Below, piece after piece: positions 2,341-58,802 of a stretch of 64,000 nt of DNA. Source of the stretch: Thermoanaerobaculia bacterium (GTDB taxonomy: Bacteria > Acidobacteriota > Thermoanaerobaculia > Multivoradales > JAGPDF01); contig JAXLQW010000001.1 of NCBI GenBank assembly GCA_046331385.1, positions 3,580,366 to 3,644,365 on the forward strand, in the 5' to 3' direction. The position numbers and the translations under genes were made by a program. The notes under the pieces were generated by a model that was not told where the DNA came from, did not search any database, and was given only the letters and a program-made list of their open reading frames with translations. Every line of letters starts with the position of its first letter. Position 1 is the stretch's first letter.

Positions 2341-2428
2341 GGGAGGCCGATTCTATGGGCCGGCGACCCCGCCGGCGCGCTCGATTCCTCGCCGGCGGGC
2401 GGCCGCGGTGGAGCGGGGAGCCGCGGTC

Positions 2429-3109
2429 TCAGACGGTTTCGTCGCCGACGATCCAGCCGTCGCGCAAGCGCACGATTCGTCGGCCGACGCGCGAGTTCTC
2501 CTCCGAGTGCGTCACCTGGATGATCGTCGTACCCTCGTCGTTCAGGCGCCGGAAGAGCCGCATGATCTCGCGCCCCTGGTCGGAGTGCAGGTTCCCGGTC
2601 GGCTCGTCGGCGAGCAGCAGCTTGGGCTTCAGCACCACCGCCCGCGCCACGCCGACCAGCTGCTGTTGGCCGCCCGAGAGCTGCGACGGGTAGAGGTCCT
2701 TCTTGCCGACGATTCCGAAGCGGTCGAGGGCGTCGGCCACCAGCGCCTGGCGCTCCGCTTTCTTCAGGTCGCGGTACGACAGCGGCACCTCGAGGTTCTC
2801 GGCCACCGTCAGGTCGTCGAGCAGGTGGTACTGCTGAAAGACGAAGCCGAGGTTGGCCTTGTGCAGCTCGTTGCGCTTCTTGAGCGAGAGCTCGTGCACG
2901 GCTTCGCCGCCGAACCGGTACTCGCCCTCCCACTCGCCGTCGAGCATGCCGAGGATGTGGAGGAGCGTCGACTTGCCGGCACCCGACGGCCCCATGATGG
3001 TGACGAAATCGCCGGGCTCGATTCCGAGATCGATCCGGCGCAGCAGCCAGATCTTCCCCGCCGGCGAGGCGATGGCCTTCTCGAGGTTCTTCAGTTCGAT
3101 CAGCGGCAC
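2429..3109 (-). CDS. ABC transporter ATP-binding protein, MacB/LolD type (a separate ATPase subunit).
   Basis: The 226-aa ORF carries GPSGAGKSTLL (Walker A), LSGGQQQLVGVARA (ABC signature), LLLADEPTGNLHS (Walker B) and the H-loop VTHS. It lies immediately downstream of an ADOP permease. Confidence 0.9.
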   Translation of the reverse strand: MPLIELKNLEKAIASPAGKIWLLRRIDLGIEPGDFVTIMGPSGAGKSTLLHILGMLDGEWEGEYRFGGEAVHELSLKKRNELHKANLGFVFQQYHLLDDLTVAENLEVPLSYRDLKKAERQALVADALDRFGIVGKKDLYPSQLSGGQQQLVGVARAVVLKPKLLLADEPTGNLHSDQGREIMRLFRRLNDEGTTIIQVTHSEENSRVGRRIVRLRDGWIVGDETV

Positions 3110-3177
3110 GCGAATCTCCTGAGCCAGGACGTCATTTTCCCTCGGGCCGGGCGCGAGAAGGCGCTCACGCAGCTTTT

Positions 3178-5601: not shown

Positions 5602-5647
5602 GGGCGTCTCCACGTCGGGATGGGGCGCTCGAGATTCGGCATCGGGG

Positions 5648-8101
5648 TCACTCCGCCCGCAGCGCGGCAGCCGGCTCGACCTCGGCCGCCCGCCAGGCGA
5701 TCGGCAGGACGGCCGCGGTCGTCGCGACCAGCAGCATCGCCGCCGCGGCGAGCCAGGCGAGCGGATCGAGCGCCGCGACGCCATAGAGAAAGCTCGCGAC
5801 CAGGTGAGCGCCCCAGCCGGCGGCGAGCGCGCCGGTCGCGAGGCCGGCCGCCGTCAGCGCCAGCGCCTCGCCGAGCACCAGACGGAGGATCCGGTGGCGC
5901 TCGGCGCCGAGCGCGGCGCGGATGCCGAACTCGCGCCTGCGCCGCCGGACGACGAACGCCACCAGCCCGGCGAGCCCGGAAGCGGTGAGCGCGAGCGCGA
6001 TCGCCGCCGCCGCGCCGACGAGCGCCGCGAAGGTGCGCTCGGGGGCGAGCGCCGCGGCGATCTGGTCGGCGAACGGGCGGGCGCGGAAGACCGGCAGCGC
6101 CGGGTCGACGGCCCGCGCCGCGGCGCGGATCGCGGCGATGGCGCGGGTCTCGCCGCCCGGCTCGACGCGGACCAGGAACTGGACGCGCGGGCGCGACTCC
6201 TGCGCCGCCGCGACGTAGAGCAGCGGCTTCGGTTGGTCGCGCAGTCCGCGCTCGCGGTAGCTCTCGACCACGCCGACGATCGTCACCTGCCAGGGATCGC
6301 GACCGGAGTCGTGGATCGTCCGGCCGACCGCCTCGCGTCCGGGGAAGAAGCGCTCGGCGAAGGCGCGGTTGACGATCGCGACCTTCGGCGCGCCCTCGCG
6401 GTCGCCGTCGCCGAAGTCGCGTCCGGCGACGAGAGGAATCCCGAGGGTGGCGAAGTAGCCCGGCGAGGCGAAGTTGAAGTTGACCGCCTCGTCGGCGCCC
6501 TCGGGCCAGGTGTAGCCCTCGGGGGTCATCGTGCGGCGCATGCCGCCGGACTCGGTCGGCACCTGGAAGCCGTAGGCCGCCCCGAGCACCCCGGGCGTCG
6601 CCGCCAGGCGCTCGCGGATCTCGGCCGCCACCCGGCGCGCCTCTTCGTCGCGGTATCCCTGACGAGCGAGGTCGACCATCGCGGTCGCGACGCCCGCGGG
6701 CCGGAAGCCGAGCGGCGTCGCGTGTAGGGCGACGAGCGTGCGACCGAAGAGGCCCGCGCCCACGAGCAGGAGCATGGCGAGCGCCGCCTGACCGGCGACC
6801 AGCAGCCGGCGCAGCCGCGGGCCGCGACCGCCCGCCGCTTCGGCGCCGGCGCCGCTCGCGCGCAGGGCGGCGAGCGCGTCGACGCGGGCGGCGGTCGCCG
6901 CCGGGCCGAGCGCGAAGACGAGGCTGGTGAGCCCGGCGAGGATCGCGGCGCCCGCCGCCACGCGCCCGCCCGAGAGCATGCCGGCCGGTTCGAGCGGGAT
7001 CGGCAGGCCGGGCGCATAGCGCGCGAAGAGGCCGACGATCGCCGACGACACGGGCACCGCCGCGAGCGCCGCGAGCGCCGCGACCAGCGCGCTCTCGGCG
7101 ACCGCCGAGCCGACCAGAGCGCGGCGCGACGCGCCGAGCGCGCCGCGGATGGCGAGCTCGCGCTGGCGCTCGAGCATGCGGGCGAGCGCCAGGCCGGCGG
7201 CGTTGGCCGCCGCGACCAGCAGGACGAGACCGCTCGTCGCGGCGAGCAGCCAGGCGACGCGCGCGACCCGCGGATCGTCCTCGACCAGGGCGCGCTCGGC
7301 GGGCACGAGGAGCGGCCAGGGGTCGCGATCCTCCCGGCTCTCGGTCTTGGCGCGCGCGGCGTCGATCGCGTCGAGCTCGGCCTGCGCCGCCGCGAGCGTC
7401 GCGCCGGGCGCCAGGCGCGCCGTGATGTCGAGGAACGACCAGCCGCGCTGCTCGAGCGGCTTCCACTGGCCCATCTCCGGGTTGACCAGGCCGATCGCGC
7501 TCATCGGCAGCCAGACCTCGGGGAAGCCGTTGAGCGTCGGGCCGCGGAAGCCGCGCGCCAGGACGCCGACGACGTCGACCGGCTGGCCGTTCAGGCGCAC
7601 CGTGGAGCCGACGATCGAGCGCTCGCCGGCGAAGCGCCGGCTGAAGCTCTCCCAGGAGAGCACGGCGACCGGCGGCGCGCCGGCGCGGTCGTCGGCCGGA
7701 CCGAGCAGCCGCCCGTAGGCCGGACGCGCTGCGAACAGGGCGAAGAAGTCGCCGGTCGCGAGGCCGGCGGCGATCCGCTCGGGCTCGCCGGCGCCGCGCG
7801 CGAAGTGCACCGACTCCCAGTCGGTCGAAGCCGCCACGTCGGTCAGCAGCCGGGCGCCGTCGCGGTAGTCGGTGAAGACCGGATACGACGAATTGCCCTG
7901 CGGTCCGGAGCGTTTCTCGTCGGTCGGGAAGATGCGCACCAGGCGGTCCGGCTCGGGCGCCGCCAGCGGGTGCACGAGCACCGCGTCGACGATGCGGTAG
8001 ATCCCGGTCGCCGCGCCGGCGCCGAGAGCGAGCAGCGCGACCGAGGTCACCAGATATCCGGGGCGACGGGAGAGCGAGCGCGCGATCTGCGACAGGTTCA
8101 T
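5648..8101 (-). CDS. ADOP-type ABC permease, paralog G.
   Basis: This is the C-terminal 817 aa of the 1421-aa artefact ORF. The start was chosen at MNLSQIARSLSRRPGYLVTSVALLALGAGAATGIYRIVDAVLVHPLAAPEPDRLV (cat at 8099-8101). The protein ends in AAALRAE. Confidence 0.85.
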   Translation of the reverse strand: MNLSQIARSLSRRPGYLVTSVALLALGAGAATGIYRIVDAVLVHPLAAPEPDRLVRIFPTDEKRSGPQGNSSYPVFTDYRDGARLLTDVAASTDWESVHFARGAGEPERIAAGLATGDFFALFAARPAYGRLLGPADDRAGAPPVAVLSWESFSRRFAGERSIVGSTVRLNGQPVDVVGVLARGFRGPTLNGFPEVWLPMSAIGLVNPEMGQWKPLEQRGWSFLDITARLAPGATLAAAQAELDAIDAARAKTESREDRDPWPLLVPAERALVEDDPRVARVAWLLAATSGLVLLVAAANAAGLALARMLERQRELAIRGALGASRRALVGSAVAESALVAALAALAAVPVSSAIVGLFARYAPGLPIPLEPAGMLSGGRVAAGAAILAGLTSLVFALGPAATAARVDALAALRASGAGAEAAGGRGPRLRRLLVAGQAALAMLLLVGAGLFGRTLVALHATPLGFRPAGVATAMVDLARQGYRDEEARRVAAEIRERLAATPGVLGAAYGFQVPTESGGMRRTMTPEGYTWPEGADEAVNFNFASPGYFATLGIPLVAGRDFGDGDREGAPKVAIVNRAFAERFFPGREAVGRTIHDSGRDPWQVTIVGVVESYRERGLRDQPKPLLYVAAAQESRPRVQFLVRVEPGGETRAIAAIRAAARAVDPALPVFRARPFADQIAAALAPERTFAALVGAAAAIALALTASGLAGLVAFVVRRRRREFGIRAALGAERHRILRLVLGEALALTAAGLATGALAAGWGAHLVASFLYGVAALDPLAWLAAAAMLLVATTAAVLPIAWRAAEVEPAAALRAE

Positions 8102-27611: not shown

Positions 27612-29657
27612 CTATGGGCAGGTCGCGAACGCGGAAGCGTCGAGGATGGGCTCGAACGGGTGCCCCGAAGCGTTGTCGTAGATCCTGGTCTCGTGCGCCA
27701 CGGTGTCTTCGACGGTCAGATGCACGCCGACGTCGGTCAATCCGGCCGTGTAGACCCAGTAGCGCTCGTAGGGCACGCAGGCGTCGAGCACTTTGACGAA
27801 GAGCTCGAGGTTGTCCGCGCCGAAGAACCAGAAGCTGCCGCTGTCGGGCGTGAGCGGCACGGCGGAGGCCTGGCCGGCCAGGCCGACCGCGCTCGCGAAG
27901 GTCGCCGAGACACGGAAACGCGCTCGATTGAGGCAGAGATGGGTCGAGTCCGCCGCGCAGGAGCCTTCGATCGCATCGGGCCGCAGCTCGGCGCCCGGGC
28001 CAGGACGCTCGCCGGTGCCCTGGGCCGAGCTCCGAAGCGCGGCCGCTTGGGGGTTCAGCCCTTGGGAGGAAGGTGCCACGGCGTCGCAGACGGGGAGCGC
28101 GAGAACGTCCTGGATGGGCGGGAACGGAGTGCCGAGCACGGTGTCGCGGATCCAGGTCCTGCCGCTCCAAGTGTCGATCACGCCGAGGGTGACTTCGACG
28201 TCGGTCAACCCGGCGGCGTAGACCCAGAAGTTCTCGTCGACGCCGCAGCCGTCGAGGATCTTGACCACGACTTCGAGGTTGTCGGCGCCGAAGAACCAGA
28301 ACCCGCCCGTGTCGGCCGTGAGCGGCACCGGATGTCCCGCGCCCTCGTCGCCCTGGGGCGTCCGCCACAGCGTACAGACCTCGAAGCGCCCACCGCCCAG
28401 ACGCAAGCGTTCGGCCCCCGGAGCACAACCGCGGAAGTACCGCCGCGCGGCAACGTCGAGCGTTCCGACCTCGGGGTCGAGGGAGTCGGCCTCCCAGGTG
28501 ACGACGAAGGCGCCCGAGTCGGAGAGCGCGACGAAGGGCCAGCTGTCGGCACGCTCGGCGCGCGTTATGTCGTCCGAGATCAATACTTCATCCCCGGCCG
28601 GCGAGCCTTCGGAACGGAAGAGACGGGCGTAGACGTCTTGGGACCGCCCTGCCTCGCCATCCGTCTTCCATGCGATGACGAAGTGACCCGCCGCATCCGA
28701 GGACAGGCTTGGCTGGTACCGATCGACCGCAGACGTTTCGCTTACAGGAACTTCCCCGGAGAGTGGACTTCCTCCAGAGGAGAAGATCCGGAATACGACG
28801 TCGTAGATTGCGGACTCCGAAGTTTCTCCTTCCCAGACGGCGACGAAGCGCTCCCCAGGGAGAGCCGCCACCCACGGTACATACTGAGGCCCATTCGATC
28901 CCGCAGCCAGTTCGAACTCCGGCGAGAGTGCCACACCCTCCGGGTCGAAGATTCGGCCCTTAACGTCGAAGCCAGCGGCGTTTTCATCCGCCCAGACGAT
29001 CATTGCCTTACCAGACGGTGACCGGGCAATCCGCGGAAGCGATGAGCCGAACTGCGGCGCGAACTCATTCACGGCGAGCAGGTCGGTGAGGGGGACCCCA
29101 TTCGCGTCGAAGCGACGAATGAAAATCTTGGCCACATCGTCTATTGGTGCCGCGAGCAGCGAACAGGCCGCGGTGACCGAAAACCCACCGTCGCCCAAAG
29201 CCGCGATTCTCGGGGCGGAACACTGATATTCGGGTCCGTGGATTGGAATTGGCTCTCCTCCTCGAGTGCCGTCGGCCAGGAGCGGAAGCACCGCCTCTCC
29301 AGACAATTCGAGGTAACCCGCGTACCAACCACCGTCTGGCTTCGATACAACGCACGTCAGCCCTTCTGCGCCGTCCGGGTGATCGCTGAGGAGCAAGTCC
29401 GGTCCCAGGGATCCATCTAGATTCAGGAACGTTGCTACCTCTCCAAAGAGGGGTTCATGGAAATTACCGAAAGCCAGGAGGGCCCGCCCCGAGCCGTCAA
29501 TCGAGATCGAGGACGGCCATTGAAGTCCAGTCGTGACTGGCGGGACTGCCGTCAGCGGCCCCAACGGAACTTGGGCTGCCAGCGGTCCATTTTGGCTAAC
29601 GATTGCACCGATTACAGCCAACGCGGACCGGCAGCAAGACGAGACGCAGATTCTCAA
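27612..29657 (-). CDS. Secreted repeat protein. The N-terminal half is built of ~45-aa Trp-containing beta-propeller-like repeats. The C-terminal part carries two tandem copies of an uncharacterised ~100-aa Cys-containing domain, the second ending in ...AFATCP.
   Basis: The 681-aa ORF has a signal-peptide-like N-terminus (MRICVSSCCRSALAVIGAIVSQNGPLAAQ). The repeats read AMIVWADENAAGFDVKGRIFDPEGVAL, RFVAVWEGETSESAIYDVVFRIFSSGGSPL, HFVIAWKTDGEAGRSQDVYARLFRSEGSPAGDEVLIS and AFVVTWEADSLDPEVGTLDVAARRYF. The two C-terminal domains are RFEVCTLW...FWFFGADNLEVVVKILDGC...YWVYAAGLTDVEVTL...PVCD and RFRVSATF...FWFFGADNLELFVKVLDAC...YWVYTAGLTDVGVHLTV...AFATCP. The gene spans a sharp GC or codon-usage break near 28640. 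Confidence 0.6.
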   Translation of the reverse strand: MRICVSSCCRSALAVIGAIVSQNGPLAAQVPLGPLTAVPPVTTGLQWPSSISIDGSGRALLAFGNFHEPLFGEVATFLNLDGSLGPDLLLSDHPDGAEGLTCVVSKPDGGWYAGYLELSGEAVLPLLADGTRGGEPIPIHGPEYQCSAPRIAALGDGGFSVTAACSLLAAPIDDVAKIFIRRFDANGVPLTDLLAVNEFAPQFGSSLPRIARSPSGKAMIVWADENAAGFDVKGRIFDPEGVALSPEFELAAGSNGPQYVPWVAALPGERFVAVWEGETSESAIYDVVFRIFSSGGSPLSGEVPVSETSAVDRYQPSLSSDAAGHFVIAWKTDGEAGRSQDVYARLFRSEGSPAGDEVLISDDITRAERADSWPFVALSDSGAFVVTWEADSLDPEVGTLDVAARRYFRGCAPGAERLRLGGGRFEVCTLWRTPQGDEGAGHPVPLTADTGGFWFFGADNLEVVVKILDGCGVDENFWVYAAGLTDVEVTLGVIDTWSGRTWIRDTVLGTPFPPIQDVLALPVCDAVAPSSQGLNPQAAALRSSAQGTGERPGPGAELRPDAIEGSCAADSTHLCLNRARFRVSATFASAVGLAGQASAVPLTPDSGSFWFFGADNLELFVKVLDACVPYERYWVYTAGLTDVGVHLTVEDTVAHETRIYDNASGHPFEPILDASAFATCP

Positions 29658-32600
29658 CCCCTACACTCCTCGTCAGTCCGTCGACGATCAGAACCGGCCA
29701 GAACTGTTCCCCTTGCTCTTGCCTCGCCCATCGAACTCCTCCCACACCAGGTGAAGAACGTTGATGTCATCCACCCACAAGGAGTGAAGCCAGATATTCC
29801 CAGTCACCTGTCGGGCCTCGTTCGTCGAGTGTCGGCCGCTCGATCTCGCGGTCGAGACCTCTCGGTATCGAACGCTAGCCGAGTTCGTCATCCTGTTGAA
29901 GATCTCCCAGGCAACAAAGCATCGCCCCGACGTACCACAGGCAATTCTTGGGTGGCGAGGTTCTCCGCTTGAGCCTCCGTCAACGAGGGCCGGCGCTGCC
30001 AGGGAGTTTCCGGCTTGAGAAACGTCGTCGATCACGAGCTGACTGGAGCCTGTCGCAGGATCCCGCTGGACCCATGAGACCCAGGCTTGCTCGCCTTCGC
30101 CGACCGCGGAGCTAGGCCAAAGTTGGTCCATAGACCCGGTCGAGGCGACCGAGAAGGAATCTCCAAGCGCTTCTCCGTTGGCGTTCAGCCACCTCGCCAT
30201 CACAGTAGCCAAGCCTCCATACGTATTTCGGTTCTCCCAGGTGACCAAGAAGTCCCCGGACGGTGCCTGAGAAGCGTGCGCCCACCTAGGCAGCTCCGAA
30301 TCAGCTTCCTCAACAACAATCGGCGAGAGAATCTCTTTTCCATCGGAGTCGATCGCTTGGGCCCAGAGGGCCCGCGTCCCCTCATCGTTCGATCCGACCC
30401 ACGTGGAGAGCGCCGTACCGCCAGCCCCTTCAGCTGAGCTTCCAGCCGCTAGGCCGGAATTCGGCTGCACCACGAGAACAAAGTCGTCGCTGCCAACAGT
30501 TCCAGGCGCGCCGGCCCACCGAAAGTCCCAAGTATTCCCGGAGACGAATGTCTGAATCAGAGAGTCCTGTCCTGCGAAGCCCGTCCTTGGATTGAACAGG
30601 TAGGCCGAGAAACTGGTCTCGAATCCGACACCCGACAGGTTGATGCGGGCCTTGTCGTTGTGCGGCAGATAGACGACCAGATGATCGGAGTCCCTAGCGA
30701 GGACCATCTGATGGTAGGAGTCTTGAGTTGCATTGTTCTTGATCCTGGATGACTGGCCAGTCTGTTCGTTCGCGACGAGGGTCCAGTAGTCGAGTTGACG
30801 AATGGCATCGCCGAGGTAGCGCTCCGGGTTGCTTGTGGCCGAGGTGCAGATCGTCTGCCACCATGTCTTGTAGTGGTCTTGCGCAACCAAGTTGTGGGGC
30901 CCGGGGCAGTCCTGCGCGGAAGTTGCCCAAGCAGGAATCGGAGTTCTGCCGCAGACCCCCCATTCCCAGAGCCCGACGGAACCAAAGCTGAAGCCGGTCG
31001 CGCCGCTTAGCCAGCTCGTGTACCCAGCTTGGCGCGCTCGAAAGAAATTCCAATCCTGCGGCACGCCTGACGCCGTGGTCGACGTTGGGTAACCCCAGTC
31101 GTAGACAGGCTCGACGTTGACGAGCGGTTTCTTTGGGTTCGCATAGGCCCCTTGAGTCGAGTACCGGACGGTCTGCGGAATTGTCTTCGCGCGAGAAGTC
31201 ATGGCCACGAGGTCCCCACCGTTGTGGCCGCTCTGGAAGCCGTGCAGATTGAGCCATGTGCTGTCATGTACTGGCGCCATTTGATTCGTAGTGATGGTGC
31301 CATGGTGATCTGCAATCATCGGATAGGTCGCGCTCAAGGAGCGAATTGCCCCGCCCGCTATATCCTCGACCGCCTCGACGGTTCGCCCGGGATTGTCCGG
31401 GCCGCAGGAGTAGCCATCCTCGCAGGCTGACGGATTGTTGTCGAAGCCCGGCGAGAGAATCACGAAGTTTCCACGTGTTCGGGCCGCAAGATTTCGAGCG
31501 AAGTCTTCGATCGCTGGGGACGCAGGGTAGGCCTCGTAGGGCGCCGACACGCCGGTAATGTAGACCATGATGCCCTGCTCGTTCGCGTATTCGATCATCG
31601 AATCGAAGCGATCCCAGAAGGCAGGGACCCATCTGGACATACAGTTCGGCCTTGTATTCTCGCGATCGTAGAGCGGGTTCCGATCGTCTGGTGCATGCGT
31701 ATAGGGGCAGGCACCGGCGAGCTCCTCGAAGGGTGGTGCGGGTGTGCCGGCGGCGTTGAGCGGGCCCCAATAAGGGCTCGACGCTTCCTGACCTGCCCAA
31801 GGTGGAATGAGTGCGAGGTGCACGACCGTGAAGCCGTTAGATTTTCGGTTGTCGATGTAAGTCTTCCACTCGTTGCTGCAAGCCTGCGTCGTGGCCATCC
31901 AGGCGGTGTCGCCGTGCCAAAAGAAGTAGGAGCCGTCGTAGTGGTTCGGGGGCAACTGCGTGACTATCCCGGTTCCTCCTTCCACGATCGAGCTCTGGAC
32001 GATCATTCCTTTGTCGTAGAGCGGGTTTCCTGAGGGCGGGCCCACGTTGACGGTAACCAGGCCGCTGGTGACAAGGCCGGCGTCGGTGTTGCAGGGTTGC
32101 GATGGAAGTGAGCTGGAGCAGGTGCTGGACCAATTCCAGGTTCCGGGGAAGGGACCGAAAGCCATGCGAAAGATGAAGCGATCGTGGACCCCGTCAGCGG
32201 CTTTCCCCGCCCAATACGCCAGAGTCCTGTATCGATAGGCCGGGTTCTGACTCCAGGTCAAGTTGATGGTGACCACGACGTCCCGATAGCCGTTCGAGAA
32301 GCTGCCGCTGCTCGTGAGCTCCTTCTGCCAGCATCGCCACTGAAGCGGCGAGCCAGCTGAGCAAGTCGGCAGCGCGGAAGCGTTGTTGCACGACGGCGTC
32401 GAGCCCCCACTGCAGCCGGATCCCTGGGCCAACACTTCGCAGCAGGAGAGCAGGGATGCGAGCAAGACGCAGCTGGAAACGAAATGTCGAGCCTTGGCAT
32501 GATTTCCGAACATTTCTCGGCCTCCGAAGCTGAGCTCAATACCCTCATGGAGAGCTCGCTAGTTTGTGCTCCCACCAGTGGCTTCTCTTTCGTGCTCCGA

Positions 32601-32780
32601 CACCACGTGTTGCACGCAAGAGCCTCTAGGAGAATCCAGGGCGTCGATGCGACTGTGAAGCGCGTATCGAAGACAGTCGCCACCCGTTCGGGTGGCGCTG
32701 AAAAGCCTGCGAGGCGGGCGGTAGGGCGCCTGGAAACTACAACTGCGCTCGGTAGGCCGTGATGCTCGCTGGGCGGGACG
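28640..32780. other. Compositionally atypical lower-GC segment (about 4.1 kb), a putative horizontally acquired island.
   Basis: By eye the segment has clearly lower GC than the ~70% flanks. Third codon positions are frequently A or T (aat, cat, ttt, gga, tca, aca), whereas flanking genes are almost exclusively G/C-ending. The left edge falls inside CDS 27612..29657, and the right edge falls in the intergenic region before moaB. Confidence 0.5.
29688..32513 (-). CDS. Secreted Cys/Ser/Thr/Trp-rich protein: signal peptide, a putative TIM-barrel glycoside-hydrolase-like core (DUF4038/GH140-like 'FFWHGDTAW' motif), and a C-terminal region of the same Trp-containing repeats as the downstream gene.
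   Basis: The 941-aa ORF has the signal MFGNHAKARHFVSSCVLLASLLSCCEVLAQ. The core includes YDGSYFFWHGDTAWMATTQ...GFTVVHLALIPPW...DRFDSMIEYANEQGIMVYITGV. The C-terminal repeats are FLVTWENRNTYGGLATVMARWLNANGEALGDSF, AWVSWVQRDPATGSS and CFVAWEIFNRMTNSASV. The whole gene lies inside the low-GC island. The hydrolase family assignment is from memory of the motif only. Confidence 0.5.
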   Translation of the reverse strand: MFGNHAKARHFVSSCVLLASLLSCCEVLAQGSGCSGGSTPSCNNASALPTCSAGSPLQWRCWQKELTSSGSFSNGYRDVVVTINLTWSQNPAYRYRTLAYWAGKAADGVHDRFIFRMAFGPFPGTWNWSSTCSSSLPSQPCNTDAGLVTSGLVTVNVGPPSGNPLYDKGMIVQSSIVEGGTGIVTQLPPNHYDGSYFFWHGDTAWMATTQACSNEWKTYIDNRKSNGFTVVHLALIPPWAGQEASSPYWGPLNAAGTPAPPFEELAGACPYTHAPDDRNPLYDRENTRPNCMSRWVPAFWDRFDSMIEYANEQGIMVYITGVSAPYEAYPASPAIEDFARNLAARTRGNFVILSPGFDNNPSACEDGYSCGPDNPGRTVEAVEDIAGGAIRSLSATYPMIADHHGTITTNQMAPVHDSTWLNLHGFQSGHNGGDLVAMTSRAKTIPQTVRYSTQGAYANPKKPLVNVEPVYDWGYPTSTTASGVPQDWNFFRARQAGYTSWLSGATGFSFGSVGLWEWGVCGRTPIPAWATSAQDCPGPHNLVAQDHYKTWWQTICTSATSNPERYLGDAIRQLDYWTLVANEQTGQSSRIKNNATQDSYHQMVLARDSDHLVVYLPHNDKARINLSGVGFETSFSAYLFNPRTGFAGQDSLIQTFVSGNTWDFRWAGAPGTVGSDDFVLVVQPNSGLAAGSSAEGAGGTALSTWVGSNDEGTRALWAQAIDSDGKEILSPIVVEEADSELPRWAHASQAPSGDFLVTWENRNTYGGLATVMARWLNANGEALGDSFSVASTGSMDQLWPSSAVGEGEQAWVSWVQRDPATGSSQLVIDDVSQAGNSLAAPALVDGGSSGEPRHPRIACGTSGRCFVAWEIFNRMTNSASVRYREVSTARSSGRHSTNEARQVTGNIWLHSLWVDDINVLHLVWEEFDGRGKSKGNSSGRF

Positions 32781-32844
32781 AGCCGGGGGTTCGGCAGAGG
32801 GCAGATGGGCATCTCGCGGTCGGGGCCCGTGCTAGCTTCGCGGT

Positions 32845-33354
32845 GTGGGAGTCGAGGAGCATCGGGCGGCGGCGAAGACGGCGCTGGGGTTCGCGGTGTT
32901 GACCGTGAGCGACACGCGCAACCGGGCGACCGACGAGGGTGGGGCGCTCGTGGCCGAGCTCGCGGTCGCGGCCGGGCATAGGGTGGTCGATCGCAAGATC
33001 GTGCTCGACGAGGCCGACGCCATCCGCGGCGCGGTCGCTTCGGCGCTCGCCGACCGAGCGACCGACGTGGTGATCGCCACCGGCGGCACCGGCCTCTCGC
33101 CGCGCGACGTCACGGTCGAGGCGGTGCGGCCGCTCTTCGAACGCGAGATCGAGGGCTTCGGCGAGCTTTTCCGGGTGAACTCCTGGAGCGAAGTCGGACC
33201 GGCGGCGATGCTCTCGCGCGCCACCGCCGGCCTGGCGCGCGGCAAGGCGATCTTCCTCCTGCCCGGTTCCCCGAAGGCGGTACGGCTGGCGATGGAGAAA
33301 CTGATCCTGCCCGAAGCCGGGCACCTGCTCGCCCAGGCGCGACGCGCCGACTGA
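32845..33354 (+). CDS. moaB: Molybdenum cofactor biosynthesis protein B (MoaB/MogA family).
   Basis: The 169-aa ORF reads LGFAVLTVSDTRN...VIATGGTGLSPRDVTVEAVRPLFEREIEGFGELFR...IFLLPGSPKAVRLAMEKLILPE. It aligns along its full length with E. coli MoaB (GGTG and the EGFGE motif). Confidence 0.8.
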   Translation: MGVEEHRAAAKTALGFAVLTVSDTRNRATDEGGALVAELAVAAGHRVVDRKIVLDEADAIRGAVASALADRATDVVIATGGTGLSPRDVTVEAVRPLFEREIEGFGELFRVNSWSEVGPAAMLSRATAGLARGKAIFLLPGSPKAVRLAMEKLILPEAGHLLAQARRAD

Positions 33355-33402
33355 GGCGCGAGCCCCGCCGCCAGAGACGCCGCCGGGCGCCCCGCCCGAG
33401 AT

Positions 33403-33681
33403 CTACTTCGAGTCCCCTCCCCGCAGCAGGCGCAGGACGAGCAGGAAGAGGAGCGCGCCCAGCGTGGCGACGATCAGGCTGTGGACGTCGAAGCCCGCGA
33501 AACCGCCGAAGCCGAGCAACGTGGCGACGAAGCCGCCGACGATCGAGCCCACGATGCCGGTCGCGAGCGTCATGAAGCAGCCCATCTTGTCGCGGCCGGG
33601 GAGGAAGAAGCGCGCCAGGGCACCGGCGAGCAGACCCATCAGGATCCACGAGAAGAGACCCATCATCGCGAATTTCGGCAT
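33403..33681 (-). CDS. GlsB/YeaQ/YmgE-family small membrane stress-response protein (transglycosylase-associated protein family).
   Basis: The 92-aa ORF reads MGLFSWILMGLLAGALARFFLPGRDKMGCFMTLATGIVGSIVGGFVATLLGFGG...HSLIVATLGALLFLLVLRLLRG. This is the typical family signature. Confidence 0.8.
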   Translation of the reverse strand: MPKFAMMGLFSWILMGLLAGALARFFLPGRDKMGCFMTLATGIVGSIVGGFVATLLGFGGFAGFDVHSLIVATLGALLFLLVLRLLRGGDSK

Positions 33682-33783
33682 CGGATCCTCCTTGTCGACG
33701 GGGAGTGTAGCCGAGGGCCGGGCGACCCGCGGCGGGCGCGGGCGCGGCGGGCGGCGAGCGCCCGCCTGCTAGGCTCGGGCGCG

Positions 33784-36423
33784 ATGTCCGCGCGCCCGAA
33801 ACTGATCCTGATCGACGGCTACAACAACATCTTCCGGGCCTTCTACGCCATCCGGAACCTGTCCAATTCGAAAGGCCTGCCGACCAACGCGGTCTACGGT
33901 TTCGTCCAGATGCTGCGCAAGATGCTGCGCGACGAGAAGCCCGACTTCGTCGGCATCGCGCTCGACCTCGGCGAGCCGACCGTGCGCAGCGACAAGTTCG
34001 CCGACTACAAGGCCAACCGCGCCCCGATGCCCGAGGACCTGCGGCCGCAGATCCCGTACGTGCGGCGCGCGATCGAGGCCTTCCGCATCCCGATCCTCGA
34101 GCTCGAGAGCTACGAGGCCGACGACGTCCTCGGCACCCTGGCGAAGAAGGCCGCCGCCGCCGGCTACGAGGTCGAGCTGGTCTCGGCCGACAAGGACCTG
34201 ATGCAGCTCGTGGCGCCGCACGTCTCGGTTCTCCACTCCGGGCGCGGCAAGCGCTACGACGAGGCGGCGGTCGAAGAGGAGTGGGGCGTGCCGCCGGCGA
34301 AGGTGATCGACGTTCTGGCGCTGATGGGCGACGCGGTCGACAACGTGCCGGGAGTGCCGGGGATCGGCGAGAAAGGCGCCAAGCAGCTCGTCGCCGAGCA
34401 CGGCTCGGTCGAGGCGCTGCTCGACAAGGCAAGCGAGATCCCGCGCAAGGCCTACCGCGAGGGGTTGCAGACGCACCGCGAGCAGGCGCTGCTGTCGAAA
34501 GAGCTGGTGACCATCCACACGAACCTGCCGGTCGAGCTCGAGCCCGAACTGCTGCGACTCGACCCGCCGGACGTCGAGGCGCTGCGCGCGCTCTACGGCG
34601 AGCTCGAGTTCCACACCCTGCTCGCGGAGCTCGGTGCCCCCGAGCGCGCCGACGCCCCACCGCCGGGAACCGACGGGCTCGCCGAGCTCGCCGACCCCGA
34701 AGCGGTGCGGGCGGCCTTCGCGGCGCTCCCCGGCCGCTGGGCGGTGGCGCTCGCCGGCGGCGCGCCGGCGGCGCTGGCGATCGGCGGGGCGGACGGCGGG
34801 CCGATCGACTGGCTCGACCTGCGGCGGCCGGAGCTGCGCGCGGCGGCCGCGGCGGCGCTCGTCGAGCGCTGCGCGCGCTCGGGCGACGAGATCGTCGGCC
34901 ACGATCTCAAGGAGCTGCTCCGCCTGGCCGGCGTCGGCCGCCGTTGCGGCGCGCGGCTCTTCGACCTGATGCTCGCCTCCTACCTGTCGCGCCCCTCGCT
35001 CCACGGCCACACGCTCGAGGAGATCGCGACCGAGAAGCTCGCCGCGGCGTCGCGCTCGGCCAAGGACGCGGGATTCGACAAGGGCCAGGAACCGGCGCTC
35101 GGCGACCCACGCCTCGGCGCCTGGGCCGGCGAGCGGCTCGAGCTCGCGCGCCGGCTCGCCCCACGGCTGGCCGAGGACCTCGCCGAGGGGCGCCTGCGCG
35201 AGGTCTTCGACACCATCGAGATCCCGCTCGTGCCGGTCCTGGTGGCGATGGAGGAGGCGGGGATCCTGCTCGACCTGCCCTTTCTCGCCGCGTTCTCCTC
35301 CGAGCTCGGCGCCGAGCTCGCGGCGCTCGAGGCGGCGATCTACGAGCTCGCCGGCGAGCGCTTCAACATCCAGTCGCCGCAGCAGCTCGGGACGATCCTG
35401 TTCGAGAAGCTGAAGCTGCCGGCCCGGCGGCGGACGCAGAAGACCAAGAGCTACTCGACCGACGCCGAGACCCTCGAGGAGCTCGCAGCCGCCGGGCACG
35501 AGCTACCGCAGAAGCTGCTGCGTTACCGCGAGCACTCGAAGCTCAAGTCGACCTACGTCGACGCCCTGCCGGCGATCGCCGGCGAGGACGGCCGGGTGCG
35601 TACGCGCTATCAACAGGCGGTGGCGGCGACCGGCCGGCTCTCCTCGGTCAACCCCAACCTGCAGAACATCCCGATCCGCACCGAGCTCGGCGGACGGATC
35701 CGGCGCGCGTTCCGCGCACCGGACGGCTTCCTGCTCGTGGCCGCCGACTACAGCCAGATCGAGCTGCGCCTCCTGGCCCACATCGCTCGCGAACCGGCGC
35801 TGATCGCGGCTTTCGCGAGCGGCGAGGACATCCACCGCGCGACCGCCGCGGCGGTGCTCGGGCTGGCGCCCGAGCTGGTGTCGGGCGAGCAGCGCCGCGC
35901 CGCCAAGGCGATCAATTTCGGCCTCATGTACGGCATGGGGGCTTTCGGACTGGCGACCCAACTCGGGATCTCGAAGCCCGAGGCCGAGTCCTTCATCGCC
36001 ACCTACTTCGCGCGCTACGGCGGCGTCCAGACCTACATGCGGGAGACCCTCGCCGAGGTCGAGAAGACCGGCCGGGTCGAGACCCTCTTCGGCCGCGTCC
36101 GCTACCTGCCGGACATTCAGTCGAAGAACTGGAACTTGCGCGAGAACGCCCGGCGGATGGCGATCAACGCCCGCATCCAGGGGACCGCGGCCGACCTGAT
36201 GAAGCTGGCGATGATCGCCGTCGACCGCCGCCTGGCCGCCGAGCACCCGCGGGCGCGCCTGCTGCTCTCGGTCCACGACGAGCTGGTGCTCGAGGCCCCG
36301 GCGGCGCAAGCCGAGGCGGTCGCCGCCCTGGTGAAGCGCGAGATGGAGGGGGTCGCCCGCCTCGCGGTCCCCCTGGTGGTCGACACCGGGATCGGTCCGA
36401 ACTGGGGAGAGGCCAAGAGCTAG
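33784..36423 (+). CDS. polA: DNA polymerase I.
   Basis: The true start is MSARPKLILIDGYNNIFRAFYA (5'-3' exonuclease N-terminus). Downstream are a 3'-5' exo-like domain and the polymerase motifs RRAAKAINFGLMYGM and LLSVHDELVLE. The protein is about 880 aa. The upstream 101 codons of the ORF are artefact. Confidence 0.95.
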   Translation: MSARPKLILIDGYNNIFRAFYAIRNLSNSKGLPTNAVYGFVQMLRKMLRDEKPDFVGIALDLGEPTVRSDKFADYKANRAPMPEDLRPQIPYVRRAIEAFRIPILELESYEADDVLGTLAKKAAAAGYEVELVSADKDLMQLVAPHVSVLHSGRGKRYDEAAVEEEWGVPPAKVIDVLALMGDAVDNVPGVPGIGEKGAKQLVAEHGSVEALLDKASEIPRKAYREGLQTHREQALLSKELVTIHTNLPVELEPELLRLDPPDVEALRALYGELEFHTLLAELGAPERADAPPPGTDGLAELADPEAVRAAFAALPGRWAVALAGGAPAALAIGGADGGPIDWLDLRRPELRAAAAAALVERCARSGDEIVGHDLKELLRLAGVGRRCGARLFDLMLASYLSRPSLHGHTLEEIATEKLAAASRSAKDAGFDKGQEPALGDPRLGAWAGERLELARRLAPRLAEDLAEGRLREVFDTIEIPLVPVLVAMEEAGILLDLPFLAAFSSELGAELAALEAAIYELAGERFNIQSPQQLGTILFEKLKLPARRRTQKTKSYSTDAETLEELAAAGHELPQKLLRYREHSKLKSTYVDALPAIAGEDGRVRTRYQQAVAATGRLSSVNPNLQNIPIRTELGGRIRRAFRAPDGFLLVAADYSQIELRLLAHIAREPALIAAFASGEDIHRATAAAVLGLAPELVSGEQRRAAKAINFGLMYGMGAFGLATQLGISKPEAESFIATYFARYGGVQTYMRETLAEVEKTGRVETLFGRVRYLPDIQSKNWNLRENARRMAINARIQGTAADLMKLAMIAVDRRLAAEHPRARLLLSVHDELVLEAPAAQAEAVAALVKREMEGVARLAVPLVVDTGIGPNWGEAKS

Positions 36424-36512: not shown

Positions 36513-37337
36513 ATGCTTCGCCGACTCCTTCCGCTGCTGCTCCTCGCCGCCCTCGCCGCTCCACCGGCCGGGGCGACCGCCGGGTTCTCCTTCTACGGCA
36601 CGACGCTCACCAACCGGACCTTCAACCGGCCGAACACCGACTTGACGACCCTGTCGGGCAAGACGACCCAGTACCACCAGCAGGCGTTCTTCGTGAACTC
36701 GGCGGCGGTCTGCGACCTGCGCAGCGCCCAAGAGGGGACTTTCGACGGCCTGATCTACCTCTACCGGGGCGCCTTCGACCCCACCTCGCCGTTGGTCAAC
36801 CTGATCGCCGCCAACGACAACGGCGGACTCGGCGTGGGGACCTCGGACCTCGCCGGAGTCGCGCTCGGCGCCGATCAGAGCTACTACCTGATCACCACCT
36901 CGGTCGAGCCGGCGGTGACCGGCAACTTCACCAATTTCGTCGAGTGCAGCGGGGCGACCCGCATCCTCGCCGGCGACGGCGCCATGCCGTCGCTCGACGG
37001 GCGCTATTCGGAGCTCAACCGCGGGCGATTCCGCATCAGCGCCACCTGGAAGGACTTCCAGGGCCATACCGGCAACGGCACCTTCGTGCCCCTCGGCTCG
37101 GAGGATTCGGGCATCCTCTGGTTCTTCTCGCCCTCGAACTTCGAGGTGATGATCAAGATCCTGAACGGCTGCGACCTGAACAACCGCTACTGGGTCTTCT
37201 ACGCCGCGCTGACCACGGTCGAGTTCCACTTGACGGTCTACGACACCTTCGCCGAGGTCACCAAGACCTACGACAACGCGCTCGGCGTCTCGGCGCAGGC
37301 GACGACCGACACCGCCGCCTTCGCCACCTGCCCCTAG
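36513..37337 (+). CDS. Small secreted protein with an unknown N-terminal domain and one copy of the same uncharacterised C-terminal '...AFATCP' domain found twice in CDS 27612..29657.
   Basis: The 274-aa ORF has the signal peptide MLRRLLPLLLLAALAAPPAGATAG. The C-terminal 100 aa are RFRISATWKDFQGHTGNGTFVPLGSEDSGILWFFSPSNFEVMIKILNGCDLNNRYWVFYAALTTVEFHLTVYDTF...YDNALG...DTAAFATCP. This region is colinear with both domain copies of the 681-aa protein. Confidence 0.6.
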   Translation: MLRRLLPLLLLAALAAPPAGATAGFSFYGTTLTNRTFNRPNTDLTTLSGKTTQYHQQAFFVNSAAVCDLRSAQEGTFDGLIYLYRGAFDPTSPLVNLIAANDNGGLGVGTSDLAGVALGADQSYYLITTSVEPAVTGNFTNFVECSGATRILAGDGAMPSLDGRYSELNRGRFRISATWKDFQGHTGNGTFVPLGSEDSGILWFFSPSNFEVMIKILNGCDLNNRYWVFYAALTTVEFHLTVYDTFAEVTKTYDNALGVSAQATTDTAAFATCP

Positions 37338-49006: not shown

Positions 49007-51900
49007 CTAGAAGCGCAACCCCAGGGCGAGGACGTACTCGCGCGGCACCGCGTAGTTGGCGTTGCCGGTGCCCTTGCCGAAGCTCGTGCCCTTGGTGAAG
49101 GTGGTCGGCAGACCGAAAGCGTCCTTCGGATCGGTCGCGCCGTTGTTGGCCCGGATGCCGGTGTTGAAGGTCACCAGCTTGTCCTCGTTCAGCACGTTGG
49201 TCACCGTGAACTTGATCCACGGCGAGAGCGACTTCCACACCGGGACGCTGTAGTTGATGGCCAAGTCGAACAAGTAGACATCGTTGAACTTCCCGACTCC
49301 CCGATCGCCGAAGAAGATGGTCTGCGGCGGAAGCTGCTGATAGCCCGGGTTGGCGGCGCGTTGCTGCGTCGTCGGCGCGAAGTTGTTGACCAGGTAGCTG
49401 AACGTCTGCGCCGAGTCGTAGCGGAAGACGACGCCGAGACCGAGGGTACCGGCGCGGCCGATGTCCAAGGTGTAGTTCGTCCACAGCCGGACCTTATCGG
49501 CCTGGTAGTTCGTCAAGCGGCCATCGGGAGCGATCCGATTGCTCGGATACACCTCCGGTCGGTTGCCGAACGGCGTGGCGCCGATCGATTGCCCGGCCTC
49601 TCCTTCGTAGGTGCCGTCGTTCTTCAGCTGATGAGTCCAGTTGCCCTCGAGCGAGAGGCTCGGGGTGAAGTTGTACTTGGCCTCGATCTGCAGCCCCTGG
49701 TACTTGCGCTTCGGGCTCGAGGTGTTCCGATAGACGACCTTGTCGAAGCAACCGGCGTTGATCCCTTCCACGATGACGTCGACGCAGCCCTGATCGATGG
49801 TGACGAAGTCGTCGATGAGGTCCTTGGTGTCGCGATCGACATAGGAGAGCTTCGCGTAGCCGCCCTTCGGCAGCTGCATGCCGTACGACAGGGTGAACTC
49901 GCGCGCCACCGGTGCGTGCAGGCCGTTCTCGAAGAAGATGTTCTGCGTCGGCGCCGCGGCGCCGTAGGTCACGTAGTTGCTCGGATCGAGACCCGGGGCG
50001 AAGTCGATGCCCTGGCCCTCGGGGCCGACATAGTAGCCGTAGATCCCGAGCGGGTTGCCGACCGGCGTGTTGCGGCCGAGGATCGCCGGGTTGTAGCGGC
50101 CGGCGTACTCGGCGTAGGTGACGTCGAACTTGTACTTGCCGTCACCGTTCAGGTCGAAGGACCCGCCGAGGCGCGGCACGAAGGTGGTGGTGTCCAGCGT
50201 GTTGATGCCGCCCGTGGCTTCCGACTTGACCTTCTCGTAGCGCACTCCGAGGTTGAACGACCAGTGCTCGTTCAGGTTCCAGCGGTCGTTGAAGAAGAGC
50301 GAGTCGGTGGTGATGTCGAGCTTGGCGCCGCGGGTCGGAATGTAATTCGCGATCAGGCTCAGCCCCTGGAGGAAGAGCGGGATGTAGCGACCGTTGGCGT
50401 CGGTCTGCGGATTGCCGTCGGCGTCGGTGAGCACGTCGCTGAAGTAGACGAAGTTGGTCGCGGTCTGGCTGTTGCCGCCGGTGCGGGTGACGGTGAAGCG
50501 CTCGACGCCGAATTTCAGGTCGTGGCTGCCGGCTCCCTGGGTGGCAAGGAAGTACGACAGGGCGCCCGAATACTGCTTGTTGTTGCGGTCCTCGGGGTCC
50601 GTGGCGTCGAAGTACGGCGCGTTGTAGAGCCCCGAAATTCCGTTGGTGAGGCCGAGCGCGTAGAACGGCGAATCCTTGATGTCGGTCGAGGTGCCGCCCA
50701 GGCCCTTGAACTGGAACTTCTTCTCCGAGTAGCGCAGCTCGCCGAACAAGCTGTTGGTGAACACGCCCGAGTAGGTCACCGAATAGCCGTCGTTCGGAAA
50801 CTCGGCGTTGGCGTTGAGCGACCGCAGGTCGAACGGCGCGAGCTGACGGTTGTTCTTCTGCTTGCGGTCGTTGTTCAGGTAGGAAACCTGCAACGAGTTG
50901 TTCGGGGTGATGTTGCCGGTCAGCTTGATCTCGTAGCGCGGGCTGTCGTCCGTGTTGATGTAGGGCGTGCCGGTGGTCTGCAGGGTCAGCGCGTTGTCGC
51001 GCTTGAACTGCCGGCCGGCGACGAAGAACCACAGCCGGTCCTTGACGATCGGGCCGCCGAGGGTGGCGCTGTAGGTCTTGTTGAGGTCGCCCTTGCGCTC
51101 GGTTCCCTTGCTCTTCTCGAACGGCGTCTCGTCGCGCCATTCGGGCTTGTCGAGGTCGGCGCGGAAGGTGCCGCTGAACTGGTTGCCGCCGCTCTTGGTG
51201 ATGGCGTTGATGACGCCGCCGGTGAAGCCGCCGTACTCGGACGAGATGCCCGAGGTCAGCACCTGGGTCTCCTCGATCGCGTCCTCGATGAACAGGCCGT
51301 TCGTCTGCCCGAAGATCGGGTCTTGAACGTTCACACCGTTGATCAAGATCGAGTTGTCGTAGGCCAGAGCGCCGTTGATCGTCACCTGGCCGGCGACCGG
51401 GGTGTTGTCGGTCAGGCCGGCGGCGAGGTCGGCGATGGTCGTGGGAGTGCGCACGACCGGCAGCTGGTCGACCGTCTGCTTCTCGAGGTTGGCGCCGATG
51501 GTGGTGGTCTCAAGGGCCGACGGCGCCTCGCCGGTCACCACGATCGTCTCTTCCGCCGCGGCGGCCTCGAGCGAGGCGTCCGAGCGCGCGGTGCCGCCGA
51601 GCGGCAGGGTCGCGGCACGCTCGACGGTCTTCATGCCTTCGATCGAGAAGCTCACTTTGTACTCGCCTGGCGGCAGGCCGCGCAGGACATAGTCACCGTT
51701 GATGCCGGTGACCGTGGTCCGCTCGCCGATCAGGGCCGGCGAGGTCACGGTGACGGTGACGCCCGGAAGCGGCTCGCCGTCGAGAGACTTCACGGTGCCG
51801 GACAGGGTCGCGGTCTGGACGCCCTGGGCGAACAGGCCCGCGCCGAAAGCCAGCGCGAGCGCGAGTCCGAGGGCAATCGTTCGAACGCTTGCCTTCATCA
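49007..51900 (-). CDS. TonB-dependent-receptor-like outer-membrane beta-barrel protein with an N-terminal carboxypeptidase-regulatory-like (CarbopepD_reg) domain.
   Basis: The true start is MMKASVRTIALGLALALAFGAGLFAQG (signal peptide). The CarbopepD-like domain is TATLSGTVKSLDGEPLPGVTVTVTS...GDYVLRGLPPGEYKVSFS, and a plug-like region is DQLPVVRTPTTIADLA. A long G/N/Y/T-rich barrel follows, ending in ...LALGLRF (C-terminal aromatic). The exact start is uncertain to within a few nt. Confidence 0.75.
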
Positions 51901-52106
51901 TGCTCCTCCTTCGTTGGGTAGCAGGTTCTCCGCCGTAGCTGGCGAAGGGCTCCGAACTAGCCAGTTTCAGAGCGAGGGGCATGCCAATCCGAACCCGCTG
52001 CGTCCGGTTCATCACATGGCGGTCAACTCACTTTGAAATCAGCCGGATCCGGTCGGTATCGCGAGAGCGGTTTCGGTCCGCACGGAGGGGCCTTTCGTCC
52101 CTCGAT

Positions 52107-57467: not shown

Positions 57468-57506
57468 AATCTGGTCTACATGTCTCACGACCGACGGAGG
57501 TCTGCG

Positions 57507-58802
57507 ATGAAGAGGTGGATTCAGTGCACCGCCGTGCTCGCGGGCGCGGTGGCGATCGCCGGCTGGACGGCCGCCCCCGCGGCGGGCGCCGGCTTCGGCA
57601 TCTTCGAGCAAGGCAGCAAGGCGATGGGCATGGCGGGCGCCTTCACCGCTCAGGCCGACGATCCGTCGGCGCTGTTCCACAACGCGGGCGGGCTCGCGTT
57701 CGTCACCGAGCAGGGCTTCAGCGTCGGCTTCACGGCGATCACCTTCGCGAAGGCCGACTTCCAGGGCGGCGAGCCGTTCCCGGGCAGCGACTACTCGGCC
57801 AAGCAGAAGACGCTCTTCCAGACGCCGCCGCACGTCTACTGGGTGCGGTCGCTCAACGAGCGCTGGAAGTTCGGCCTGGGCTTCAATACGCCCTATGGCC
57901 TGGAGACGAACTGGAAGAACCCGGAGACTTTCGAGGGTCGGTACCTGTCGACCAAGGCGGCGCTGCGCACCTTCGATTTCAACCCCAGCCTCGGTTGGCA
58001 GGTGAGCGACCGCTTCGGCATCGGTTTCGGCGCCATCGTTCGCTTCTCGGACATCGAGCTCAACCGCTTCGTGCCGCAGGTCGATCCCTTCACCTTCCGG
58101 GTGGTGGACGTGGCCAAGGTCAAGCTCGACAGCGGCTTCGAGCGCGGCTACGGCTGGAATCTCGGCATTCTGCACCGCTACAACGAGAGCTTCTCCTGGG
58201 GCTTCTCCTATCGCAGCCGGATCAAGGTGGACTACGACGGCAAAGCGCACTTCACCCAGATCCCGACCGGCAACCCGGTGCTCGACGCGGTGATCGCCTC
58301 GCGCCTGCCGTTCACCAGCGCCGCGCCGGTGGCGACGTCGATCGAGTTCCCCGACATGGCGAGCCTCGGGGTGGCCATCGCCCTCGGCCCGACGATGGTG
58401 CTCGAGGCGGACGCCAACTGGACCGGCTGGTCGAGCTTCGACAAGGTGGCGATCGCGATCGAGAACCGGCCCGACCTGTCGAGCACCCTCGACGAGAACT
58501 GGGACAACGCCTACAACTACCGCCTCGGCCTGCGGTGGAACTCGAGCGCCGGCTCCCAGTGGCGCTTCGGCTTGGTCCTCGACCAGACGCCGCAGCCCGA
58601 CGAGCACGTGAGTCCGCTGCTGCCCGATTCCGACCGCCTGGGCTACACCGTCGGCTTCGGCCACGCTCTCGGCGGCAACCAGATCGATCTGGCGCTGATG
58701 TACTTGCCGTTCGACGACCGCACCACGACCACGAACTCCGACAACTTCAACGGCACCTACAAGACCCAGGCCTGGCTCTTCGGCGCGACGTACAGCTTCT
58801 GA
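57507..58802 (+). CDS. FadL/TodX/OmpP1-family outer-membrane channel for long-chain fatty acids or hydrophobic compounds.
   Basis: The protein starts with the signal [28 protein letters not shown], then [37 protein letters not shown], the FadL N-terminal hatch motif. A beta-barrel follows, ending in ...GATYSF. Confidence 0.8.

Follow-up and report, generated by a model that had tools for sequence, protein, structure and literature searches.

Within a 64-kb window of DNA (64,000 nucleotides of contig JAXLQW010000001.1, from the metagenome-assembled genome (MAG) of a Thermoanaerobaculia bacterium), the open reading frame (ORF) at 27612-29657 on the minus strand, hereafter gene A, changes abruptly in nucleotide composition part-way along a protein of conserved architecture. 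An earlier note on this DNA, made from the sequence alone, had read the change as an in-frame fusion created by an island insertion, a case of domain shuffling in which acquired N-terminal repeats were joined to resident C-terminal domains. Comparison with homologues refutes that reading: distant relatives have the same architecture and mostly uniform composition, the gene upstream accompanies gene A in other loci, and the break lies inside a single fold rather than at a domain border. The composition change most likely marks an old recombination crossover within an existing gene, not a new fusion. Our best explanation, which we hold to be probable though well short of certain, is that gene A is a mosaic allele of an existing gene of ancestral architecture, formed by recombination with a lower-GC relative that carried the same two-gene cassette.

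A composition step inside an intact gene

Gene A is a single uninterrupted frame of 681 codons (681 amino acids, TTG start), as the earlier note had it. GC content at third codon positions (GC3) is 0.65 over codons 1-358 and 0.88 over codons 359-681, and the per-codon profile is a step rather than a smooth slope: in bins of 30-40 codons, GC3 is about 0.63 in each up to codon ~350 and about 0.88 thereafter. We located the break with a binomial maximum-likelihood change-point scan of GC3, using 2000 codon shuffles as the null. The maximum falls at codon 358, with a support interval of 2 log-likelihood units at codons 350-373 (28539-28608 in the window), and its log-likelihood ratio (LLR) is 25.9, compared with a 99.9th percentile of 8.4 and a maximum of 8.8 among the shuffles. 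The abrupt break that had been proposed is real, but its position, given as near 28640, was about 50 nt off. Synonymous-codon models trained on the upstream, apiosidase-like gene versus 17 host ORFs bear out the island-like codon usage claimed for the 5' part, with codons 1-358 scoring +0.31 nats/codon (sum +110.6) and codons 359-681 scoring -0.07 to -0.10; the cumulative maximum, which marks the switch, is at codon 364.

The atypical part of gene A belongs to a longer tract of about 4.2 kb, from 28584 to about 32750 (upper edge approximate, ~32750-32800), that comprises propeller blades 1-6 of gene A, the whole apiosidase-like gene (29688-32513, minus strand) and ~240 nt of non-coding DNA upstream of the latter. 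Total GC forms a plateau of 0.57-0.62 from ~28600 to ~32750 with both edges sharp; the level is unchanged through the gap of only 30 nt between the stop codon of the apiosidase-like gene and gene A, through the apiosidase-like gene itself and through its upstream DNA, and ends sharply before a MoCF_biosynth gene. That gene and, on the other side, an arginase-family gene flank the region, and both have host composition. Coding-like host ORFs in the window have GC3 values of 0.87-0.95, and the only atypical ones are the apiosidase-like gene (0.71) and the 5' part of gene A.

The position of the step within the protein can be read from an AlphaFold2 model of gene A (39 homologues), which is confident, with a mean predicted local distance difference test score (pLDDT) of 87.6 and a predicted template modelling score (pTM) of 0.88. 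The model contains seven blade-like strand groups, at residues 45-77, 101-125, 143-182, 204-236, 257-291, 312-346 and 371-407, and the top Foldseek matches in the PDB are 7-bladed propellers; residues 45-407 therefore form a 7-bladed beta-propeller. The break lies between blades 6 and 7, inside this closed propeller and ~52 codons upstream of the border (~codon 410) with the first of two C-terminal domains, which we call FATCP domains. The support interval for the change point (28539-28608, minus strand), which by LLR, codon model and modelled blade positions is the putative recombination junction, corresponds to the loop connecting blades 6 and 7. A domain-shuffling junction is expected at a domain border or linker, while a homologous crossover can fall anywhere; the interval (codons 350-373) is neither at the propeller/FATCP border nor in the linker.

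The same sequence is found in an independent assembly. In the 90% cluster of the apiosidase-like protein, one Logan member of 941 amino acids matches the ORF in the window exactly. The contig that encodes it, SRR26348421_96258 (6596 bp), reproduces window positions 27616-34211 at 100% identity, without mismatch or gap; it runs across both tract edges and takes in the MoCF_biosynth gene and almost the whole of gene A. Mis-assembly across the tract edges, a possibility for which long-read re-sequencing had been suggested, is thus unlikely: the contig is at least an independent assembly, although its sequencing run may overlap with the reads of the MAG itself. Signs of a mobile element were also sought: a tRNA scan found no tRNA gene in the 64-kb window, a repeat search found no direct-repeat pair bracketing 28.58 and 32.75 kb, and the tract holds no integrase or other mobility gene, its genes being the apiosidase-like gene and part of gene A only. 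The absence of these features fits recombination better than insertion of a mobile island.

Conserved architecture and cassette

In a search of 5.8 billion proteins, at least 15 relatives (657-691 amino acids, 31-47% identity, 96-99% query coverage) share the architecture of gene A: a signal peptide, a 7-bladed propeller and two tandem FATCP beta-sandwich domains. A scan of GTDB representatives with a 14-sequence alignment, in a collection that does not include the genome of the window, brought up no closer relative. GC3 is near-uniform in most homologues, with change-point LLRs of 1.5-4.6. Averaged over 10 homologues, it rises gently from 0.75-0.79 in the signal peptide and blades 1-2 to 0.87-0.89 from blade 6 to the first FATCP domain, and is 0.87 in blade 6 versus 0.88 in blade 7. 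In the window, by contrast, blades 1-6 are flat at 0.63-0.72 and blade 7 is at 0.90. Because the homologues show no step between blades 6 and 7, the step in the window is specific to this genome rather than an exaggerated family gradient, and we rejected such a 5'-to-3' gradient as a full explanation.

A different pattern was seen in three homologues (L001 10001-12034 and those of L002 and L004), where the increase in GC3, from ~0.64-0.76 to ~0.88, comes between blades 4 and 5. Low GC3 in the 5' blades is thus a recurrent feature of this family, but the break is not at the position seen in the window.

Unfused relatives of the propeller do exist. At 25-30% identity, these propeller-only proteins of ~410 amino acids stand further from gene A than the full-length homologues do over their propeller halves (33-36%). 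A protein search with the N-terminal half returned only such remote propeller-only proteins of ~410 amino acids, the word filter of that search having missed the fused homologues; it revealed no donor and lent no support to a former existence of the halves in unfused form.

The apiosidase-like gene accompanies gene A elsewhere too. A related gene lies directly upstream of the gene A homologue, in the same orientation, in five other independent loci: L004 (on the same contig as L009), L006, L010, L011 and L013. Identities to the window in these loci are, in that order, 44, 44, 35, 37 and 32% for the apiosidase-like protein and 44, 45, 39, 38 and 37% for gene A. The divergence of the two genes thus co-varies across loci, from which we conclude that the pair is an old, co-inherited cassette; the genomic contexts of the gene A homologues differ from one another. 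The two proteins are also related in part. The C-terminal ~250 residues of the apiosidase-like protein align with the blades of gene A (gene A residues 128-345 with residues 669-884, blastp E=4e-10), and the observation that the two genes carry repeats of the same type was correct.

The cassette is not fixed in every relative. L002 and L004 are syntenic Thermoanaerobaculia relatives with ~80-84% nucleotide identity in their flanks and in gene A, and a 934-amino-acid apiosidase-like gene is cleanly present in L004 (4964-8000) and absent from L002 (9936-10000). The difference falls exactly in the interval bounded by a penicillin-amidase gene on one side and by the gene A homologue's ribosome-binding site on the other. 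Presence and absence at the same site indicate that the cassette is gained or lost on short time scales.

Origin of the step

Gene A shows one mark of a mosaic gene formed by intragenic homologous recombination, an abrupt change of character within an intact gene of conserved architecture. Under the mosaic-allele explanation, a lower-GC relative with its own copy of the cassette would have supplied DNA that recombined with the resident copy of gene A, and a tract of ~4.2 kb would have replaced the apiosidase-like gene together with blades 1-6. One crossover would lie between blades 6 and 7, on the 28.58 kb side, and the other end of the tract in non-coding DNA upstream of the apiosidase-like gene, at ~32.75 kb.

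Several observations weigh against this explanation. The 3' part of gene A leans towards the host without being fully typical of it, with GC3 at 0.88 and a codon log-odds of -0.09, as opposed to -0.19 to -0.28 in host genes. Three homologues exceed the shuffle bound with a lower 5' part (L001, LLR 13.3; L013, 10.4; L011, 9.7), and since low 5' GC3 recurs in several homologues, some family-intrinsic effect must exist. In each of the six genomes with the cassette, the GC3 of the apiosidase-like gene falls short of that of its host (0.64-0.80 versus ~0.85-0.95; L004 5178-7982, L006 2523-5303, L010 ~4060-6648, L011 ~4327-6912, L013 ~1503-3422 and window 29688-32513), although the proteins share only 32-60% identity, a regularity beyond the reach of any single ancient transfer. 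The search of 5.8 billion proteins yielded neither a donor nor a near relative, and apart from the sequence itself the closest matches were 47% identical for gene A and 44% for the apiosidase-like protein. Nor is there segment-wise protein discordance at the break, although power is low with nearest homologues only 44-47% identical: whichever segment is taken, the protein encoded in the window branches as a deep sister of the P0002-P0012 group. Measured against one common set of homologues, identity is 0.33-0.36 for residues 30-358, ~0.41 for blade 7 and 0.60-0.77 for the C-terminal domains, with the same nearest group throughout. The relative-distance ratio scales the distance of the window protein from the ingroup by the distance that separates the subclades of that ingroup; it comes to 1.59 for blades 1-6 (bootstrap interval 1.39-1.92), 1.71 for blade 7 (1.26-2.47) and 1.20 for the C-terminal domains (1.04-1.39), with no difference in behaviour between the island-type blades and the host-type blade 7.

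Some of these observations also feed the alternative that we take most seriously, which is nonetheless unlikely: that the heterogeneity is intrinsic and involves no horizontal transfer, the apiosidase-like gene and the fast-evolving blades sitting at a lower GC3 equilibrium of which the window is an extreme case. The cause might lie in selection, or in biased gene conversion, that acts only weakly on accessory and rapidly evolving sequence, while the conserved, multi-copy FATCP domains stay host-like. Low apiosidase GC3 in six of six loci, a family-average GC3 rise that roughly parallels conservation, the three homologues with significant heterogeneity of the same sign and the lack of phylogenetic discordance at the break all agree with it. 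Against it, the window has a step rather than a gradient: blades 5-6 are at 0.64-0.65, compared with 0.84-0.87 in homologues; blade 7, no better conserved than blades 4-6, has a GC3 of 0.90; the second edge of the tract is sharp and lies in non-coding DNA; and no homologue reaches much more than half of the LLR of 25.9. Also unlikely, in our judgement, is that the glycosidase-propeller cassette is an accessory module exchanged repeatedly among Thermoanaerobaculia, the conserved 3' portion of gene A, from blade 7 through the FATCP pair, serving as a one-sided homology anchor for its integration. If true, this would explain why the apiosidase-like gene has GC3 below that of the host in six genomes and is present or absent at the same site in relatives, why GC3 in the 5' blades is recurrently low with lineage-specific breaks, and why the tract ends inside gene A.

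Three further alternatives were weighed. One, which is improbable, has the entire cassette arriving from a lower-GC donor, after which gene conversion by a resident paralogue with the same module replaced the sequence of blade 7 and the FATCP domains. The FATCP pair is promiscuous and multi-copy (8834 cluster representatives, mostly with tandem pairs and many N-terminal partners), and a paralogue with one such domain lies only ~9 kb away (36513-37337), with a GC3 of 0.94 that marks the FATCP module as resident in this genome. But the collection searched, which includes the proteins of this MAG, holds no near-identical donor: the best partial matches reach 60% identity, and the nearby paralogue shares 44-48% with the FATCP domains of gene A. 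Moreover, the converted stretch must include blade 7, so that the donor would be another propeller-FATCP gene and the proposal reduces to recombination between relatives. A new in-frame fusion of acquired repeats to resident FATCP domains, made by an island insertion, strikes us as very improbable. The composition break inside one ORF is real, and over evolutionary time the FATCP module has been joined to many different N-terminal domains; against this stand the fused architecture in at least 15 relatives with mostly uniform GC3, the cassette kept in five other loci, a break 52 codons before the domain border and propeller-only proteins that are more distant than the fused ones. To rescue the fusion, all fused homologues would have to derive from this lineage, which their 31-47% identity excludes. 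Equally hard to credit is a chimeric contig joining two co-occurring populations. The source is a MAG and conserved modules can mislead assemblers, but two false joins would be needed, both ORFs are intact, the junction falls where gene A is poorly conserved, and the Logan contig crosses both edges without a difference.

The main value of the case is corrective. A composition break within an ORF can resemble a fusion made by an island, and comparison shows here an old architecture with the break inside a single fold. An intragenic GC3 step should be compared with the architecture of homologues, and with blade and domain borders, before domain shuffling is called.

The encoded proteins and related systems

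Gene A encodes a modular secreted protein, as had been suggested, of an uncharacterised family found in Thermoanaerobaculia and other Acidobacteriota; signal peptide, propeller and FATCP pair are assigned from the homologues and the AlphaFold2 model. All of its parts lie on the minus strand. Codons 1-29 (29571-29657) encode a signal-peptide-like N-terminus (MRICVSSCCRSALAVIGAIVSQNGPLAAQ), followed by VPLGP; homologues align from residue ~25, and the model has a helix at residues 12-19 with low pLDDT. Blades 1-6 occupy codons 30-358 (28584-29570; GC3 0.65, island-like codon usage by the codon model) and blade 7 occupies codons 359-410 (28428-28583; GC3 0.90, host-like). The first FATCP-type beta-sandwich domain (C1) follows at codons 411-525 (28083-28427; GC3 0.89), then a disordered linker of low pLDDT at codons 526-565 (27963-28082) and the second such domain (C2) at codons 566-681 (27615-27962; GC3 0.90), ending in AFATCP. 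The earlier description of the 3' part as two tandem, host-like FATCP domains stands as to the two domains and their composition; that part also holds blade 7, and only the second domain ends in FATCP. The repeat period, put at ~45 amino acids, is that of propeller blades and ranges over ~42-61.

Structural comparison of the propeller with the PDB by Foldseek returned PL42 (7esn), GH145 (5mul, 5muk and 5mum), Dfer_1899, sialidase-like proteins and lectins, all at 9-12% identity; the best of these (7esn and 5mul/5muk/5mum) have E-values of 1e-9 to 1e-7 and TM-scores of 0.52-0.64 relative to the target. Scans of the gene A protein against Pfam and NCBIfam gave no match, and a profile search of PDB sequences gave only a chance match (E=0.81). 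The two C-terminal domains are 49% identical to each other. Between them, a 133-nt stretch (27728-27860 versus 28196-28328) is 81% identical at the DNA level; it encodes the conserved core PLT.D.G.FWFF..NLE..VK.LD.C, and its identity could reflect either codon bias on that core or gene conversion between the copies.

The apiosidase-like gene encodes 941 amino acids with a DUF4038, GH140-type catalytic domain, a Collagen_bind_2 domain and C-terminal propeller-type repeats. Its matches are to PF13204 (residues 191-577, E=3.6e-37, 129.1 bits versus a cut-off of 26.5) and to PF12904 (E=2.3e-6, 27.8 bits versus a cut-off of 22). On another Logan contig (P0327, 4152 bp), an apiosidase-like gene is identical up to residue ~564 and continues as a frameshifted tail, pointing to a strain variant, a pseudogene or an error of assembly. 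Judging from the neighbouring glycosidase, the signal peptides and the fold matches, gene A and the secreted GH140-like enzyme may act extracellularly on a glycan, which the propeller would bind or process while the FATCP pair served as an accessory module for binding or anchoring. A GH140-like glycosidase and a propeller-FATCP protein, conserved as a pair, would then define an uncharacterised extracellular glycan-processing cassette in Thermoanaerobaculia.

The starts annotated by NCBI for both genes appear to be too late. The identical NCBI protein for gene A (MAG Thermoanaerobaculia, U0X73_15180, on a 4.52-Mb contig) begins at an internal start, L154, and at 528 amino acids covers only the last 528 of the 681 codons; the apiosidase-like gene is annotated with 862 amino acids. 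We favour the 681-amino-acid ORF because full-length homologues align from residue ~25 and because a GAGGAG ribosome-binding site, read directly from the sequence (29666-29671, minus strand), lies 8 nt upstream of the TTG at 29657. We favour the 941-amino-acid ORF because homologues cover 97-99% of the query and the Logan gene call agrees. A promoter and terminator scan of 27.3-33.0 kb returned sites no more numerous than in shuffles.

The FATCP domain itself, a cysteine-containing beta-sandwich of ~115 amino acids, is C-terminal on many unrelated secreted proteins. A full HMMER scan of 1.84 billion cluster representatives matched 8834 clusters at E<=1e-3 and 6848 at E<=1e-10. The domain nearly always occurs as two tandem copies, in proteins of 283-6124 amino acids with many different partners, and one protein carries 26 copies; some propeller relatives carry PF18962 where FATCP would sit. 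With more than 8800 clusters at 50% identity and neither a Pfam model nor a close solved structure, this very large family merits a domain definition. The nearby paralogue (36513-37337, plus strand) is a secreted protein of 274 amino acids with an unrelated N-terminal part of ~150 amino acids and a single FATCP domain ending in AAFATCP.

Low-GC patches elsewhere in the window (36.5-37.3, 49-52 and 57.5-58.8 kb) were considered as islands and rejected, their GC3 being host-like (0.91-0.94) and their GC at first codon positions (GC1) low. The ORF at 49007-52027 (minus strand; GC3 0.91, GC1 0.57) encodes a TonB-dependent-receptor-like outer-membrane barrel with a CarboxypepD_reg domain, and that at 57468-58802 (plus strand; GC3 0.94, GC1 0.57) a FadL/TodX-family transporter, also an outer-membrane beta-barrel. 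Because these two patches encode outer-membrane beta-barrels, their low GC reflects amino-acid composition rather than island origin.

The founding member of GH140, the DUF4038 family (PF13204), is the rhamnogalacturonan II (RG-II) apiosidase of Bacteroides thetaiotaomicron. By sequence, the apiosidase-like protein belongs with it, matching PF13204 above the gathering threshold and also PF12904; it differs in its extra C-terminal propeller-type repeats and its pairing with a propeller-FATCP gene. The propeller of gene A, next to a glycosidase gene, resembles in fold the PL42 L-rhamnose-alpha-1,4-D-glucuronate lyase (7esn) and the GH145 protein BT3686 (5mul, 5muk, 5mum), but an identity of 9-12% in structural alignments, with no Pfam, NCBIfam or PDB sequence match, leaves it outside both families at the level of sequence. 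As a C-terminal beta-sandwich shared by many unrelated secreted proteins, the FATCP domain is comparable to the C-terminal domain of the type IX secretion system (T9SS; PF18962) and to carbohydrate-binding modules.

Like classical genomic islands, the tract is a block of atypical GC and codon usage with an accessory glycosidase gene. Unlike them, it is only ~4.2 kb long, has no tRNA, integrase or flanking repeats, and has one edge inside a gene that it does not disrupt. Homology-facilitated illegitimate recombination with a one-sided homologous anchor has been described in Acinetobacter and Streptococcus, and the edge positions by themselves suggest a likeness: one edge lies in a conserved gene, a possible anchor, and the other in non-coding DNA. 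Also comparable are the mosaic genes that arise by intragenic homologous recombination, such as pneumococcal pbp2x and pbp2b and Neisseria penA. In common they have an intact ORF, unchanged architecture, a foreign-like block with a sharp intragenic edge and no mobility genes; gene A differs in that its evidence is compositional, with no donor allele found and no discordance of protein distances between segments. On this reading the case is an unremarkable instance of something already familiar, seen here in an uncharacterised protein family.

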